DNA from: Escherichia virus TH55 | Sequence record: MT446421.1 | Reading direction: 5' to 3' (one strand) | Length of the DNA stretch: 64,000 nt | In this document: one piece after another, positions 10,564-33,867 of the stretch | How positions within the stretch are numbered: the first letter of the stretch is position 1 | Layout: every line of letters begins with the position of its first letter | The notes under the pieces: model-generated | Told to the model about the DNA's origin: nothing | The model's database searches: none | What the model saw: the letters and a program-made list of their open reading frames with translations, nothing else | Position numbers and translations under genes: made by a program

Positions 10564-11527
10564 ACTTGTCCCAGAACTTCATGTCCACCTTCACAGGCAT
10601 ACCATTCTTAGCAGCCTGGATGGCCAGAACTTCAACTAAATCGACAGTATCTTCAAGAAGTTCTTGAACTTCTTTAAATGGTAATTCACCAGCTTTAATC
10701 AGCTTAATGATAGAGGCTTCACGCAATGGGAATACCAAGTCACCTGTTTGGTAGATTTCCATCAATTGATACCCTGCACGATATGCATGGCTCAGTGCTT
10801 TCCAGTCAATACCTTCATTAGCTTCAGCCTTACGAGCACGTTCACCATATTCGGCGTCGAGTTTATTCAGAGATTGCTTGAGCTCGATTAATGATAGAGT
10901 AGTTTGGTATTTACGACCGAGGACAGTATAGAACGTTTGAGGACCTGTTTTCTCATGGTTATGAAATACCCATTCGCAGAACTCGTTTTCAGGGAGCCTG
11001 TGTTTGATATCTTCTACCTTAGTACGTCGTTGCTTAGTGGAACCATCTTCTTGATAATCAACCCATTGTTCAGGAATCTGGTTAACAATTTCCAATACAC
11101 CACGCAGTGCAGCCAATCGAGAACCTTTAACACCATATTTGGAAGCTTGCTTACGGACGTACCCCAAATAGGCTTTCATGTTAGTTGTATAGAACCGCGA
11201 ACGGTTGTCTTGAATAAACTTCCATACATCTGGTAAATCGGATTTGACTACCAGGTCAGCCGGTGTGTGAATCATATCCAGAGCAACGGTTTCGCCTTCG
11301 GCTGCCAGTTTAAAGAAATATTTCAGGCTATAAAGTTCATGGTCAACATCATCTTTTGTATTTTTGGTAGCCGTGTTATTCGTGTTCAGGTTGGTATGGT
11401 TCATCGCGGTTCCGAGCAGGATATCTCGCGGATGAGGAACAAAGATTTCTTTAAAATCAACATCAGATTCCGGAGTGCTTGTTCCATAAAGATGGCTACC
11501 GAAGTAGCCTTTCATAACTGTTCTCAT
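10517..11527 (-). CDS. putative pol-beta-superfamily nucleotidyltransferase-like protein (336 aa)
   Basis: N-terminal hG[GS]-x10-DhDh signature (FGSHLYGTSTPESDVDFKEIF) typical of minimal nucleotidyltransferase fold; rest helical; family not identified. Confidence 0.5.
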   Translation of the reverse strand: MRTVMKGYFGSHLYGTSTPESDVDFKEIFVPHPRDILLGTAMNHTNLNTNNTATKNTKDDVDHELYSLKYFFKLAAEGETVALDMIHTPADLVVKSDLPDVWKFIQDNRSRFYTTNMKAYLGYVRKQASKYGVKGSRLAALRGVLEIVNQIPEQWVDYQEDGSTKQRRTKVEDIKHRLPENEFCEWVFHNHEKTGPQTFYTVLGRKYQTTLSLIELKQSLNKLDAEYGERARKAEANEGIDWKALSHAYRAGYQLMEIYQTGDLVFPLREASIIKLIKAGELPFKEVQELLEDTVDLVEVLAIQAAKNGMPVKVDMKFWDKFVEEVYLDNHNSYYR

Positions 11528-18692: not shown

Positions 18693-18981
18693 ATTTTTTC
18701 CAGTCAGAAATCATGTGAATCTCCTGGTCATATGCCAGGAGACTGCGAGTAATAATACCCTTACAAGGTCCAGAAATAAATTCCAGAGTAAAGTAAGGAA
18801 CCTGTTTCATTAATCGGATACTTGGAGCATGACATCTAAAACGAGAGCCCTTAAAGGGCCCTGACATGAATACATATTCTAATGGATAGAAATAAGCATA
18901 TTCAAAATTAACGGTAAGGTCCTCTCTTCGGACCTTACGTGAGAAATAGCAAAACTCAAAAAGTTCTTCATCAGTCATCAT
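18685..18981 (-). CDS. hypothetical protein (98 aa)
   Basis: Minus-strand ORF. Confidence 0.45.
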   Translation of the reverse strand: MMTDEELFEFCYFSRKVRREDLTVNFEYAYFYPLEYVFMSGPFKGSRFRCHAPSIRLMKQVPYFTLEFISGPCKGIITRSLLAYDQEIHMISDWKKYV

Positions 18982-19505
18982 TGCATTCCTATCACAAAGA
19001 ACAACGGCAAAGGCTTATCACCTTGACACATAAATTTATTCATCATTACCTGATAAGCTTCATAGAACTTATCCATTGCAGGGAGGCGAATAGGTTCTTC
19101 AATAATGATTAAAAGACGCGTAAAACGCAATCCACGGTACTTATGGAAATTATCTTCATCAAGGAAACTGCGTACAGTATCATAGACAACGAATCCAGGT
19201 CGTTCAACTTGAAGATGTGGTTGTGCCTTAGAAACCCGCTTTATTATATTACAGATTTCTCGTGAGCGATGCGAAGAACTCGACATAACAATCACATCAT
19301 TACCTTTAGAAACCCAATCCGCAGCAAACTGCGCAATAGCACTTGTTTTACCTGTTTGTCTTCCACCATCAAGTCTAAGAGTACCAAACTCTTGCATTCT
19401 TGAAGCGGGTTCATACCAGGTGTATTGGTCTGAATCTAAACGTTCAATGGCGCGTTCAGCGAAGGCGTGCATTAAGGTTAGATAAATGGGAGTTAAAAAT
19501 TTCAT
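18978..19505 (-). CDS. small P-loop NTPase-like protein (175 aa)
   Basis: Walker A GGRQTGKTS and Walker-B-like LLIIIEEP; possible early promoter at 19541-19570. Confidence 0.5.
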   Translation of the reverse strand: MKFLTPIYLTLMHAFAERAIERLDSDQYTWYEPASRMQEFGTLRLDGGRQTGKTSAIAQFAADWVSKGNDVIVMSSSSHRSREICNIIKRVSKAQPHLQVERPGFVVYDTVRSFLDEDNFHKYRGLRFTRLLIIIEEPIRLPAMDKFYEAYQVMMNKFMCQGDKPLPLFFVIGMQ

Positions 19506-19540
19506 AGTTGTCTCTTAATTGTGGGGCCATTCCTTGGCAC

Positions 19541-19570
19541 ATTAATTCGTCCATGTATCCGTATGTAAAC
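19541..19570 (-). promoter_or_regulatory. possible T4-type early promoter
   Basis: Minus strand: -35 GTTTACA, 17 nt, -10 ATTAAT (weak); in 161-bp ORF-free gap upstream of 18978-19505. Confidence 0.4.
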
Positions 19571-19666
19571 CCTTTACCGCACTTGGGCTCGACCTTATTA
19601 CAGGTAGGGAAAGGTCCATCACTCAGAGGACGCGACGTTCATGAGGAGAGGGCCGGCTTGCCTTTA

Positions 19667-19966
19667 TTAGAAAGAACCAGAACCTTTAATTGTGTTCTGG
19701 CGACCTTTATTTTCTAATTCAGAATGGTCGATTTCGTATGCTTGTGCTACACCAAAGGCCTTTTTAACTTTAGCTAAAGAGCCTTTAGATGTGACAATAT
19801 TAAAAGTATTGCCTTTAGTAAAATCAACCAAATCCACTTGTACACCCTGTTTACCGAGGCTTGCTACAATAGCATCAACATATTGTTGGTCTAAATTGCC
19901 CTGGACTCCGATTTGAAATGCTTTGGGAGCTTTGGCTTCAGTAATAAATTCTTGATAAGTTTTCAT
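19667..19966 (-). CDS. internal-protein-like capsid-targeted protein (about 99 aa)
   Basis: Start at M14 gives N-terminus MKTYQEFITEA, the capsid targeting sequence of T4 internal proteins; early promoter 19997-20026 upstream. Confidence 0.6.
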   Translation of the reverse strand: MKTYQEFITEAKAPKAFQIGVQGNLDQQYVDAIVASLGKQGVQVDLVDFTKGNTFNIVTSKGSLAKVKKAFGVAQAYEIDHSELENKGRQNTIKGSGSF

Positions 19967-19996
19967 TTTATATTCCATTGTTTGGTTAATAAAATC

Positions 19997-20026
19997 ATTA
20001 TACAACCTTTTTAGTTAAGCGTACAC
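19997..20026 (-). promoter_or_regulatory. T4-type early promoter
   Basis: Minus strand: -35 TGTACG/GTGTAC, 17-18 nt, -10 TATAAT; upstream of MKTYQEF start at 19966. Confidence 0.5.
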
Positions 20027-20431
20027 AGCTTTCCCATAGTATTTGTACCAAGCAGGCTTTTGAGAAATTTTCTCATTCAGTCTAGCTTGACTGATTTCAA
20101 TTGACCAGATTGATGGTTGATAATCATTCTTCCATTCATCAGGAATATCAGTTAAATCTTGGGTAGAAATATCTTTTATGTTAAACCCTCGCTTTAAACA
20201 TTCCGCAATAAGTTCTTGATGCCGGTTTTTAAGGAACAAAAGCTTATCATAAAAGAAGGTGACATGACCAGTCCCTAAAAGGAAAGATGATGGGATTTTA
20301 AAGTCAGAAACCTTTTTACCATTTTGTACATGCTTACGAACAGCACCAAACACGCGAGGAAGCTCACGATATTCAGCCATAAGATGTTGGTCAGCGAGTT
20401 CAGATACCAGGGTTAAGTTAATGCGAGTCAT
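20015..20431 (-). CDS. denV: endonuclease V (pyrimidine dimer DNA glycosylase)
   Basis: 138 aa; near-identical to remembered T4 DenV ([35 protein letters not shown]...[11 protein letters not shown]). Confidence 0.95.
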
Positions 20432-20457
20432 GTTTGTTCTCCGTAGTTGATAGGGTC

Positions 20458-20486
20458 ATTATAACCCTATCATTTGGAGATGTACA
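20458..20486 (-). promoter_or_regulatory. T4-type early promoter (denV)
   Basis: Minus strand: -35 TGTACA, 17 nt, -10 TATAAT lying in loop of palindrome ATAGGGT/ACCCTAT. Confidence 0.6.
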
Positions 20487-20756
20487 TCATTTCTTAGAGT
20501 ATTGACCCATAAGTTTAGCGATATCACCCAATTTCTGATTAAACAAATAATCCACTTCTTTGCCAGATTTATCTACAATTTGCCACTGACCATTTCCTTT
20601 GTTGCCAAAGGTCCAATCACCGACTTTAAATGAAGTTCCATTAACTTTTTTAATAGAAGTAAACTCAAAGCCTTCTTTCTTAGCTAAAAATGCCATGCGG
20701 CTTTCATCTGATTCATTTAATACAGATTCAGCCAAAAATTCTTGATACGTTTTCAT
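20487..20756 (-). CDS. internal protein II-like capsid-targeted protein
   Basis: 89 aa; N-terminal MKTYQEFLAES capsid targeting sequence; between denV and e as ipII/ipIII in T4. Confidence 0.7.
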   Translation of the reverse strand: MKTYQEFLAESVLNESDESRMAFLAKKEGFEFTSIKKVNGTSFKVGDWTFGNKGNGQWQIVDKSGKEVDYLFNQKLGDIAKLMGQYSKK

Positions 20757-20764
20757 ATTTTACC

Positions 20765-21256
20765 TTATTTGTATGCGTCAAAAGTTCCGGTGCGGAAAGT
20801 TTCAATAACTCGTTTAGCCCGGTTCGGAGTCTGGACTTTATACCATCTTGAGTCTGCCAGTTCCTTGGCAGCCGCTTCCCATGATTTAGCCTTCAGCAAT
20901 CGCATACCCTTAGGAAAACCCGCAACACCAGCAACACCCATCTGGAATACCATATTAATGAGTGCACAACGACGAACTTCATCAAGTACATCATAAACAG
21001 GTTTTAAGACAGGATGTCTCAAGATTCCGGCTTTAGCCTTTTCGACCGAACGGTTAAACAGTGTTTCGGCTTCGTGTTGGGTTATACGACCATTACAGAC
21101 GCGACCCATGAGCTTATCGAGCTCGGCGCGAGCAACATCTTTAGATGGGTTCTTAGTTATCAGTTGCCCGATGCCAATGGTCCAATAGCCTTCAGTATCT
21201 TTATACAAATCCAACTTACAACCTTCATCTATGCGTAACATTTCGAATATATTCAT
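20765..21256 (-). CDS. e: lysozyme (endolysin, T4 e)
   Basis: 163 aa; [12 protein letters not shown]...[13 protein letters not shown]...[12 protein letters not shown]...[19 protein letters not shown] matches T4 lysozyme. Confidence 0.95.
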
Positions 21257-21282
21257 AATACCCCCTTATATAGGGGTATTTA

Positions 21283-21741
21283 TTATCCGAAAATTTGAGT
21301 CATTACCTTGTACATCGATTTGCCCATCACATACTGCCATTGACTCGGTTTAATCAGAGCAAATGCATCGAACTCTGGAACCGAACTACCATCCGGGAAG
21401 GTATGATAGGCAGAGCATTTACTATGTCTAAACTGCTCATGCTCAACCGGAACCGTGTACAAAAACAGGTGAAGATTTTTGTTATCTGAATAACGGAACT
21501 CACCCAGGTCCTTTAAGAATGCCGGGTCGTATTGGGTAAACCCGGTTTCTTCTTCGGTTTCACGGATAGCCGCTTCAATCGGGGATTCACCAGCTTCAAC
21601 ATGGCCCTTAGGGATGTCCCATTTATGTGCAGGCATACCTGGTTTACGAGAACAAGTCACACGACCCATGAATAACTCTTTATCTTCAGTCATGAAAATA
21701 ATGCCAGCAGATAATTCTTTCACCTTGTTTTTCTTACTCAT
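21283..21741 (-). CDS. nudE: Nudix hydrolase
   Basis: From M12 about 152 aa; Nudix box GHVEAGESPIEAAIRETEEETG; position downstream of e as T4 nudE. Confidence 0.8.
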   Translation of the reverse strand: MSKKNKVKELSAGIIFMTEDKELFMGRVTCSRKPGMPAHKWDIPKGHVEAGESPIEAAIRETEEETGFTQYDPAFLKDLGEFRYSDNKNLHLFLYTVPVEHEQFRHSKCSAYHTFPDGSSVPEFDAFALIKPSQWQYVMGKSMYKVMTQIFG

Positions 21742-32691: not shown

Positions 32692-32946
32692 TTATTTTTT
32701 AGGGATACGATAGTAACGCATCTCAACATCTTTCTGCTTGTGCCACTTTTTGATAAGGTCTTCAGAACCTTTAATAGTAACGATGTCATAGCGACCATCA
32801 TGCGATACTTCAGCACTTAACTGCATGAAGTTGTCTAGTGAACGGCGCAATTCCTCATTAGAAAAACTACCACGCGGGGAACCAACATAAGCAAACTCAA
32901 CTTTTGCATCTGCGGCTTCGTTAATAAATTCTTGATAAGTTTTCAT
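32692..32946 (-). CDS. internal-protein-like capsid-targeted protein (84 aa)
   Basis: N-terminus MKTYQEFINEA (CTS). Confidence 0.6.
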   Translation of the reverse strand: MKTYQEFINEAADAKVEFAYVGSPRGSFSNEELRRSLDNFMQLSAEVSHDGRYDIVTIKGSEDLIKKWHKQKDVEMRYYRIPKK

Positions 32947-32971
32947 GTTGTCTCCAGTAGTTGATGAGATA

Positions 32972-33001
32972 ATTATACTGCAGTTATCCCATCGCGTATA
33001 C
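32972..33001 (-). promoter_or_regulatory. possible early promoter
   Basis: Minus strand: -10 TATAAT, -35 GTATAC at 18-nt spacing; same leader motif. Confidence 0.4.
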
Positions 33002-33002
33002 T

Positions 33003-33245
33003 TTATTTTAAGTCTTCCAGACGTTTTTTCATCTTGGTGCCATTCTTAGCAATCTCGCCGGCATCAGAACAAAGAGCAAGGAGAGCTTTAACTTTACCCT
33101 GGTCGCCTTTAAAAGATGATGCATCTACTGAATCAGCAAGTTCTTTGATACGTGCAAACAGGCGCTCTGCTTCAGCAAGGGCTTGACCAAGTTTAACTTC
33201 CATACCATGGGAAGATTCTGTTATAAATGTTTGATAAGTTTTCAT
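33003..33245 (-). CDS. internal-protein-like capsid-targeted protein (80 aa)
   Basis: N-terminus MKTYQTFITES (CTS-like). Confidence 0.6.
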   Translation of the reverse strand: MKTYQTFITESSHGMEVKLGQALAEAERLFARIKELADSVDASSFKGDQGKVKALLALCSDAGEIAKNGTKMKKRLEDLK

Positions 33246-33253
33246 TTGAAATC

Positions 33254-33526
33254 CTATTTTAGATAAATTGCATATTTTTTATAACCAGCCGTCTCATGGC
33301 GAAGACCCTTGTCATTGGCAAAACGCTCAATGTTATTAATTTGGTTCTGGTCAAGTTCTGAAATGTCAAACGCAAAAAAGTTGCGTTTGTTACCAATTGT
33401 TATATGGTCAGTTAAGTCAATGCTATACAGGTGATTGATATTGTCAATCATAGCTTTGACTGCTTTACTAATTTTTACTTCTTCATTCAGTTGTGACTCG
33501 TTGAAAAATTCATTGAAAGTTTTCAT
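33254..33526 (-). CDS. internal-protein-like capsid-targeted protein (90 aa)
   Basis: N-terminus MKTFNEFFNES (CTS-like). Confidence 0.55.
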   Translation of the reverse strand: MKTFNEFFNESQLNEEVKISKAVKAMIDNINHLYSIDLTDHITIGNKRNFFAFDISELDQNQINNIERFANDKGLRHETAGYKKYAIYLK

Positions 33527-33534
33527 AAGAAACC

Positions 33535-33867
33535 TTATTTATAAAGTTTTGCCAGTTCTTTACGTCCGCGTGCAGACATAATAAATTGTTCATCGCCAAT
33601 TTTAAAATAAGCCATACCGCCGTCAACAGCGATACCAATTTCTTTAGTACCTTCTTTGCCTTTCCACTTGCCACCAGATTTCAGGACAGCTTCAACTGCA
33701 GCTTTGGAATATTTGGACGTTTGAAAACGTTCATTACCAATCTGAAAGAAAACACCATCTGCATTTTTGGTTAAACCAAATTTCAGAGAGCCTTCACTAT
33801 CATCAATTGATTTGGTCTCATTGATGGCGGATTCGGCTAAAAACTCGTTGTAAGTTTTGATGTTCAT
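33535..33867 (-). CDS. internal-protein-like capsid-targeted protein (110 aa; position of T4 ipI)
   Basis: N-terminus MNIKTYNEFLAES (CTS-like); early promoter 33903-33931; adjacent to 57B as ipI in T4. Confidence 0.6.
   Translation of the reverse strand: MNIKTYNEFLAESAINETKSIDDSEGSLKFGLTKNADGVFFQIGNERFQTSKYSKAAVEAVLKSGGKWKGKEGTKEIGIAVDGGMAYFKIGDEQFIMSARGRKELAKLYK

Follow-up and report, generated by a model that had tools for sequence, protein, structure and literature searches.

Two short genes that flank denV in a 64,000-nucleotide stretch of DNA from Escherichia virus TH55 (MT446421.1; the whole stretch is referred to as the window) most probably encode internal proteins (IPs) of the T4 type, i.e. 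proteins that are loaded into the prohead, trimmed by the prohead protease gp21, injected together with the DNA and probably used as anti-restriction effectors, and whose slots in the genome swap cassettes. One gene encodes an 89-residue protein, here called Ip89, and the other a 99-residue protein related to Ip7 of phage VR7; each protein begins with a capsid targeting sequence (CTS). Judging from their sequences, packaging, cleavage and injection of both proteins are likely, and an anti-restriction role is plausible by analogy with T4. The phenomenon as such is already known and both families are already catalogued as annotated PHROG families, so that the finding itself matters little and adds one documented arrangement of a locus already known as hypervariable. 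The 1.9 kb around the locus match Escherichia phage UPEC07 (MW250787; Straboviridae, Tevenvirinae, Gaprivervirus) at 100% identity and other Gapriverviruses (VR7, SP18, P8 and DK-13) at 93–98%, with every gene in this part of the window lying on the minus strand.

Published work on the CTS (PMC9026906) indicates that the first 10 residues are enough for targeting, that targeting depends on residues 4 and 7 and processing on residues 8 and 10, and that gp21 cleaves after Glu in the motif L/I-x-E. Both window proteins start with MKTYQEF, which has the form MKT(Y/F)xEF with Tyr/Phe at position 4 and Phe at position 7, and both carry L/I-x-E at residues 8–10 (L-A-E|S in Ip89 and I-T-E|A in the Ip7-like protein), all experimentally critical residues (4, 7, 8 and 10) being kept in both. 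T4 IPII and IPIII begin with MKTYQEFIAE, which both window proteins match in MKTYQEF and in the L/I-x-E motif, and in a multiple alignment of eight IPs the only invariant columns were M1, T3, Y4, Q5, E6, F7 and E10. Within the two families, E10 is invariant, and Y4, F7 and L/I-x-E are kept among members that are only 37–78% identical. Cleavage after E10 would leave products of 79 residues with a pI of 9.2 for Ip89 and 89 residues with a pI of 9.3 for the Ip7-like protein, both small and basic, with predicted mature masses of about 8.9 and 9.5 kDa, respectively; in the structural models of both, a compact domain follows a disordered propeptide. Both genes lie in recognised IP loci, which are the e/denV region and the region downstream of 57B. 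The predicted partners are present as well: UPEC07 encodes a Peptidase_S77 protein (gp21; MW250787 73375-74013, E = 2e-101) and a T4_CASP scaffold protein (gp22; MW250787 72524-73342, E = 3e-91), and its genes for gp21, gp22 and gp67 lie about 0.7–2 kb past the end of the window.

A six-frame scan of the 64-kb window found exactly three open reading frames (ORFs) beginning with MKTYQEF, at 19966, 20756 and 32946, compared with a rough chance estimate of ~1e-4 occurrences of this exact 7-residue word over ~128,000 codon positions. Looser variants of the targeting sequence, which the exact-word scan misses, open three further ORFs at 33867, 33526 and 33245, bringing the candidate CTS-type genes in the window to at least six.

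In the direction of transcription, the minus strand carries nudE, e, the 89-residue ORF, denV, the 99-residue ORF, a 161-nt spacer and a vs.8-like gene (Table 1). An earlier note, made from the sequence alone, had placed two CTS-bearing genes on either side of denV, and both are found where it put them: MKTYQEFLAES opens the ORF at 20756-20487, MKTYQEFITEA opens the one at 19966-19667 from an in-frame ATG inside a longer ORF (20005-19667), and denV, recognised by its Pfam Pyr_excise domain (20431-20015), lies between them. Its statement that ipII and ipIII of T4 both lie between denV and e agrees with NC_000866, where the order of transcription is e, ipIII, ipII, denV, vs.8; in the window one IP gene is located between e and denV, as in T4, and the other between denV and vs.8. 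The internal-protein locus differs from that of T4 in both order and content, as the note had stated, neither gene being an orthologue of ipII or ipIII. The difference is real but not peculiar to the present phage, since the layout e-IP-denV-IP-vs.8 is also found in Dhakavirus UP19, and Mosugukvirus PM2 and Winklervirus CHI14 have related ones.

Ip89 matches phrog_8765 ('internal virion protein') over its full length (residues 1–89, E = 4.6e-37), and RefSeq likewise names its homologues 'internal virion protein', with 62–78% identity for those in phages of Pectobacterium, Enterobacter, Kosakonia, Edwardsiella and Serratia. The family is small, with 42 phage records found by tblastn and 11 clusters in 5.8 billion proteins. 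The sequence is identical in six Gapriverviruses, and identity is 63–78% in phages of Klebsiella, Pectobacterium, Enterobacter, Kosakonia, Edwardsiella, Erwinia and Serratia, a range that also covers the homologues in the coliphages UP19 and EcS1. Phages of four genera, among them Dhakavirus UP19, Mosugukvirus PM2 and Winklervirus CHI14, have the gene for a family member in the e/denV interval, and a distant homologue (38% identity) in Proteus phage phiP4-3 is found at the other IP locus, adjoining 57B. The AlphaFold model of Ip89 (pLDDT 81) predicts a helix, five strands and a helix, with low confidence for the N-terminal propeptide. All 12 aligned family members keep a second motif, L13-x-E15, without change, and two paralogous IPs of the window have it too (FLAES-A-INE and FFNES-Q-LNE); by its sequence, a second gp21 cut after Glu15 (L-N-E|S) is possible, which would give a propeptide of 15 residues. 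A profile hidden Markov model search with Ip89 in 1.84 billion proteins returned 10 matches, of which the long ones (Big_13 Ig repeats and PD40 repeats) were judged spurious because a short beta-hairpin stretch was matched repeatedly.

The Ip89 gene begins 8 nt after the e stop codon, and the sequence TAAGGTaaaatATG that follows this stop codon provides a good Shine-Dalgarno element as its ribosome-binding site. The short distance makes co-transcription with e likely, and Ip89 probably shares the e transcripts.

The region around e and denV contains two potential regulatory elements. Directly upstream of the e start, a CCCCU/AGGGG hairpin (21262-21276, minus strand; region 21257-21284) encloses the Shine-Dalgarno region and is preceded by AATAAATA, which is one mismatch away from the late-promoter consensus. 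In T4, early e transcripts are translationally silent and late transcripts start inside a hairpin, which the e hairpin here resembles. Between Ip89 and denV there is a sigma-70-like promoter (20449-20486, minus strand) with TGTACA and TATAAT separated by 17 nt; a 7-bp inverted repeat, GATAGGG...CCCTATC, has the -10 hexamer in its loop. The element is conserved in VR7 and is reminiscent of the promoter/stem-loop cassettes proposed for module shuffling in T4-type phages.

The 99-residue protein matches phrog_2667 ('internal head protein') over residues 1–99 (E = 8.4e-43), shows 96–97% nucleotide and protein identity to VR7 ip7, and is 49% identical to the internal head protein of phage T2 (E = 5e-20); the name Ip7 for this T2-type internal head protein comes from the VR7 record. 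With homologues in 283 phage records, it is, by sequence, a member of the Ip7 family. Its AlphaFold model (pLDDT 75) predicts a ferredoxin-like beta-alpha-beta-beta-alpha-beta fold with an added C-terminal helix, the propeptide again being of low confidence.

The start codon of this gene requires a choice between ATG 19966, ATG 19978 (12 nt upstream, used in GenBank) and TTG 20005 (from the ORF finder). Initiation at one of the two upstream codons, giving a precursor of 103 or 112 residues with an internal targeting sequence, seems to us distinctly unlikely. The reading frame is open back to 20005, the GenBank records of UPEC07 and P8 take the 312-nt version, and the Shine-Dalgarno element before ATG 19966 is weak (GGA, 7-nt spacing); against this, TTG 20005 touches its only Shine-Dalgarno-like sequence with zero spacing, and ATG 19978 has none at all. 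VR7 and most database homologues begin with M-K/L-T-Y, the upstream extensions added by gene callers in other phages differ in sequence (MAPFNLNLTILGYK) and are thus not conserved, and the same 48-nt stretch is the untranslated leader of ip10 in VR7. Initiation at ATG 19966 therefore remains the preferred assignment. The choice is immaterial to the conclusion because I-T-E|A is present under each start, leaving the mature product unchanged; the earlier note had seen a danger to its proposal in a longer N-terminus that lacks a processing site, and every version of the protein has the site.

Comparison among close relatives suggests how the two slots acquire their contents. Within one genus, both slots hold different cassettes or none: the layout is e-denV-ip10-127c-ip7 in VR7, e-denV-ip7 in P8, e-Ip89-denV-IP-ip7 in phage 212, e-ipII-denV-IP-ORF-ip7 in CJ20 and e-Ip89-denV-ip7 in UPEC07. 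Because the e/denV slot of CJ20 contains a true ipII orthologue (94% identical to T4 IPII), ipII and Ip89 are alternative cassettes. On the other side of denV, UPEC07 runs collinear with VR7 to the end of denV and on across the 48-nt leader and the 30 nt of ip10 CTS codons (ATGAAAACTTATCAAGAATTTATTACTGAA), then passes straight into the ip7 body and skips ~0.63 kb; the leader and CTS codons of the UPEC07 Ip7-like gene match VR7 ip10, not VR7 ip7. In the e/denV slot, UPEC07 (Ip89) and CJ20 (ipII) have the 3' end of e, the leader and ATGAAAACGTAT in common and split within the CTS codons, and on the 3' side of this slot UPEC07 rejoins VR7 at TACATCTCC, upstream of denV. These end states fit a model in which cassettes would be swapped by recombination between the repeated CTS codons and conserved flanks. 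The breakpoints suggest that a 30-nt shared coding repeat can both act as an address label of the protein and offer a site at which cassettes are exchanged by recombination.

The use of CTS codons as recombination substrates also means that a CTS could be acquired passively, and the CTS in one or both proteins might then be a relic of recombination, with poor packaging and any action confined to the producing cell; the lack of a late promoter consensus nearby would be in line with this. We consider such a relic very improbable, as the conservation of Y4, F7 and L/I-x-E described above for members of low identity points to selection on the propeptide itself, and the Ip89 gene lies immediately past e, which is a late-translated gene in T4.

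Assuming that both proteins follow the T4 pathway, they would be synthesised late in infection, and during prohead assembly the 10-residue N-terminal CTS would dock each of them on the gp22 scaffolding core. The prohead protease gp21 would then remove the propeptide after Glu10, and the trimmed small basic proteins would remain in the DNA-filled head and enter the next host together with the DNA. There, each would most likely disable one specific host defence upon DNA entry, by analogy with T4 Ip1, Ip2 and Ip3, the favoured target class being modification-dependent Type IV, GmrSD-like, restriction enzymes. Each of these three T4 proteins inhibits a GmrSD Type IV enzyme of its own, with no cross-protection (Silas et al. 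2025, PMC12373910).

Three observations weigh against this assignment. A literature search found no report of virion proteomics or N-terminal mapping for UPEC07 or either family. Between 18.9 and 22.0 kb the coding strand has no copy of the canonical late promoter TATAAATA, only sites with one mismatch, so late expression must come from read-through or from non-consensus promoters. Finally, when 10 other ip genes were challenged with five further active GmrSD systems, no new inhibitory pair emerged (PMC12373910), which makes the target class a guess. Ip89 and the Ip7-like protein may conceivably be injected inhibitors of defence systems to which no phage counter-measure has been matched so far.

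The negative result with the 10 ip genes could also be read in favour of a structural function, in which the IPs would be packaged as abundant basic proteins that aid core assembly or DNA condensation and would have no specific host target. The basic mature products (pI 9.2–9.3) would suit this role, and a T4 head contains ~300 copies of each IP, while mutants in IPIII assemble heads more slowly and have a lower burst size (PMC9026906). We nevertheless regard a purely structural function as unlikely: cassettes that are present, absent or exchanged among near-identical phages fit accessory arms-race genes rather than a structural need, all three T4 IPs have specific GmrSD targets, and the models of both window proteins predict compact folded domains, not histone-like tails. 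As each of the three T4 IPs disables its own GmrSD enzyme, the six CTS-type proteins of UPEC07 can be viewed as orphan IPs that are ready-made probes for new Type IV or other defences, and such orphan IPs may help to explain the host range of therapeutic T4-like phages.

Table 1. Features of the IP loci and neighbouring elements in the window (window coordinates)
Feature	Position	Strand	Remarks
nudE	21774-21283	minus	
e, lysozyme	20765-21256	minus	Pfam Phage_lysozyme; directly upstream of the 89-residue ORF
Ip89, 89-residue CTS-bearing gene	20487-20756	minus	phrog_8765; the UPEC07 record in GenBank calls it a hypothetical protein
Ip89 codons 1-10, MKTYQEFLAE	20727-20756	minus	predicted gp21 cut after E10 (L-A-E)
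Ip89 codons 11-15, SVLNE	20712-20726	minus	second L-x-E motif
denV, pyrimidine-dimer DNA glycosylase	20015-20431	minus	Pfam PF03013 (Pyr_excise), E = 9e-16; divides the two IP slots
99-residue CTS-bearing Ip7-family gene	19667-19966	minus	phrog_2667
Ip7-like gene codons 1-10, MKTYQEFITE	19937-19966	minus	predicted gp21 cut after E10
Spacer between Ip7-like gene and vs.8	19506-19666	minus	contains the conserved core 19568-19606
Near-invariant non-coding 38-nt core ACCTGTAATAAGGTCGAGCCCAAGTGCGGTAAAGGGT	19568-19606	minus	~60 nt past the stop codon of the Ip7-like gene
vs.8-like gene	18978-19505	minus	right-hand border of the denV-vs.8 IP slot; phrog_1488 (unknown function)
Second IP locus, four tandem CTS-like genes	32692-33867	minus	downstream of 57B
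110-residue protein, start MNIKTYNEFLAES	within 32692-33867	minus	phrog_3966 ('unknown function')
90-residue protein, MKTFNEFFNES	within 32692-33867	minus	phrog_7673
80-residue protein, MKTYQTFITES	within 32692-33867	minus	phrog_3499
84-residue protein, MKTYQEFINEA	within 32692-33867	minus	phrog_8111

The second IP locus of the window, downstream of 57B, is the equivalent of the ipI locus. At the other end of the denV region, the vs.8-like gene lacks a targeting sequence, contains a P-loop/Walker-A-like motif (GGRQTGKT) and encodes a protein with 38% identity to T4 Vs.8; the GenBank note 'IpIII internal head protein' on this gene is wrong. Further labels in the record look wrong as well, namely pyrimidine dimer glycosylase for vs.5, portal vertex protein for e.2 and major capsid protein for some ORFs of 70–80 residues.

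Within the spacer that separates the Ip7-like gene from vs.8 lies a conserved core that may be a more valuable lead than the IP finding. In T4-like phages this core is the conserved border of the denV/vs.8 IP slot on its 3' side. A blastn search with its sequence, ACCTGTAATAAGGTCGAGCCCAAGTGCGGTAA, matched 1,065 phage records from several unrelated lineages, among them Vequintaviruses (rV5 and isim), the 45-kb phage Ivi, an Erwinia jumbo phage and, judged by the organism summary only, 18 Campylobacter phages. A scan with an IUPAC pattern also located it in IMG/VR contigs of ~46 kb and ~70 kb. The core is usually intergenic, and in non-T4-like phages it usually has tRNA gene clusters as neighbours; at eight such loci the two are within 0.2–0.7 kb of each other and share the strand.

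In a comparison of 25 distinct flank contexts, the core hardly varies except at two hairpin-loop positions and a few others, an invariance that is partly imposed by the search pattern. It contains a 4-bp hairpin (ACCU-GUANNA-AGGU), in which one lineage shows a compensatory change from A-U to G-C. The sequences that immediately flank the core show greater mutual complementarity within one instance than when flanks of different instances are paired (mean -4.55 against -2.88 kcal/mol; Mann-Whitney test, p = 1e-5, a value not corrected for relatedness). Single-sequence folding of the spacer was unexceptional (z = 0.2), and the RNAalifold signal from five sequences was weak. We tentatively suggest, at somewhat less than an even chance, that the core belongs to a so far undescribed structured RNA, ~45–50 nt long and specific to phages, composed of the 4-bp hairpin, a conserved 17-nt single strand and a closing helix of variable sequence. 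Rfam gave no match at E ≤ 1 in a 3-kb scan or at E ≤ 10 in a 221-nt scan, and a literature search for the core sequence found no match.

Two other origins of this region were considered and rejected. A host origin of the core is not supported, as no match was found in E. coli genomes or in a set of 185,579 bacterial and archaeal genomes (one per species). The 161-nt spacer is also not the degenerate 5' end of vs.8 or another decayed gene, given that its nucleotide conservation is ~90% when the Vs.8 proteins are only 38% identical; in UPEC07, VR7, UP19 and PM2 the reading frame through the spacer is broken, with 1-nt and non-triplet indels. In T4 (NC_000866, ~64,790-64,912), the first ~40 codons of vs.8 as annotated (PVIRSSPSAV...) coincide with the conserved block, and in the relatives vs.8 starts at a Met aligned with T4 Met41; going by this alignment, the annotated T4 vs.8 start may be over-extended.

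In a ~70-kb IMG/VR phage contig, the core is followed, some 40 nt further on, by a tRNA-like element (10652-10718) with a perfect T-arm, GCGGUUCGAUUCCGC, and an acceptor stem of 7 bp. The element is not recognised by ARAGORN and scores only 15.6 bits as tRNA-Sec in Rfam.

Turning to known internal proteins, Ip89 and the Ip7-like protein resemble T4 IPII and IPIII in the 10-residue CTS (9–10 of the first 11–12 residues are identical), the L/I-x-E site, the small basic product and the gene neighbourhood, and differ from them in their mature parts, for which no homology is detectable even by comparing profile with profile, and in the placement of the second gene between denV and vs.8, T4 having both of its genes between e and denV. 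Neither protein can be regarded as an orthologue of IPII or IPIII: when the alignment to ipII/ipIII that the earlier note had proposed was carried out with BLASTP, only residues 1–11 or 1–12 aligned and nothing further was conserved. Nor are the two window proteins homologues of each other, as profile-to-profile comparison detected nothing beyond the CTS. Pfam gave no significant match for either protein, with only sub-threshold noise (DUF1694 and Pex14_N), and a PDB sequence search with profiles of both families gave no match.

For the Ip7-like protein, the closest known system is Ip7 of T2 and its relatives, to which the 99-residue protein is homologous over its full length; the Ip7 homologue of Enterobacter phage CC31 adjoins 57B at the other IP locus, whereas the gene in the window occupies the denV/vs.8 slot. 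T4 IPI* (Ip1, the GmrSD inhibitor) is rejected as an orthologue of either protein, since there is no link to it in sequence or fold. By analogy, the two window proteins nevertheless likely share its way of working, that of an injected, protease-trimmed small protein. The predicted layout of Ip89 is like that described for IPI* (PMC3012670), with a beta-sheet flanked by N- and C-terminal helices, and the propeptide of T4 IPI comprises 19 residues and ends in I-T-E, so that Ip89 may likewise have a longer propeptide. According to Repoila et al. 1994, as relayed in PMC3012670, PMC9026906 and PMC12373910, the IP loci of T-even phages contain unrelated proteins that share only the CTS and are swapped at fixed loci. 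The locus described here shows the same pattern as these hyperplastic T-even loci and differs from them in nothing essential.

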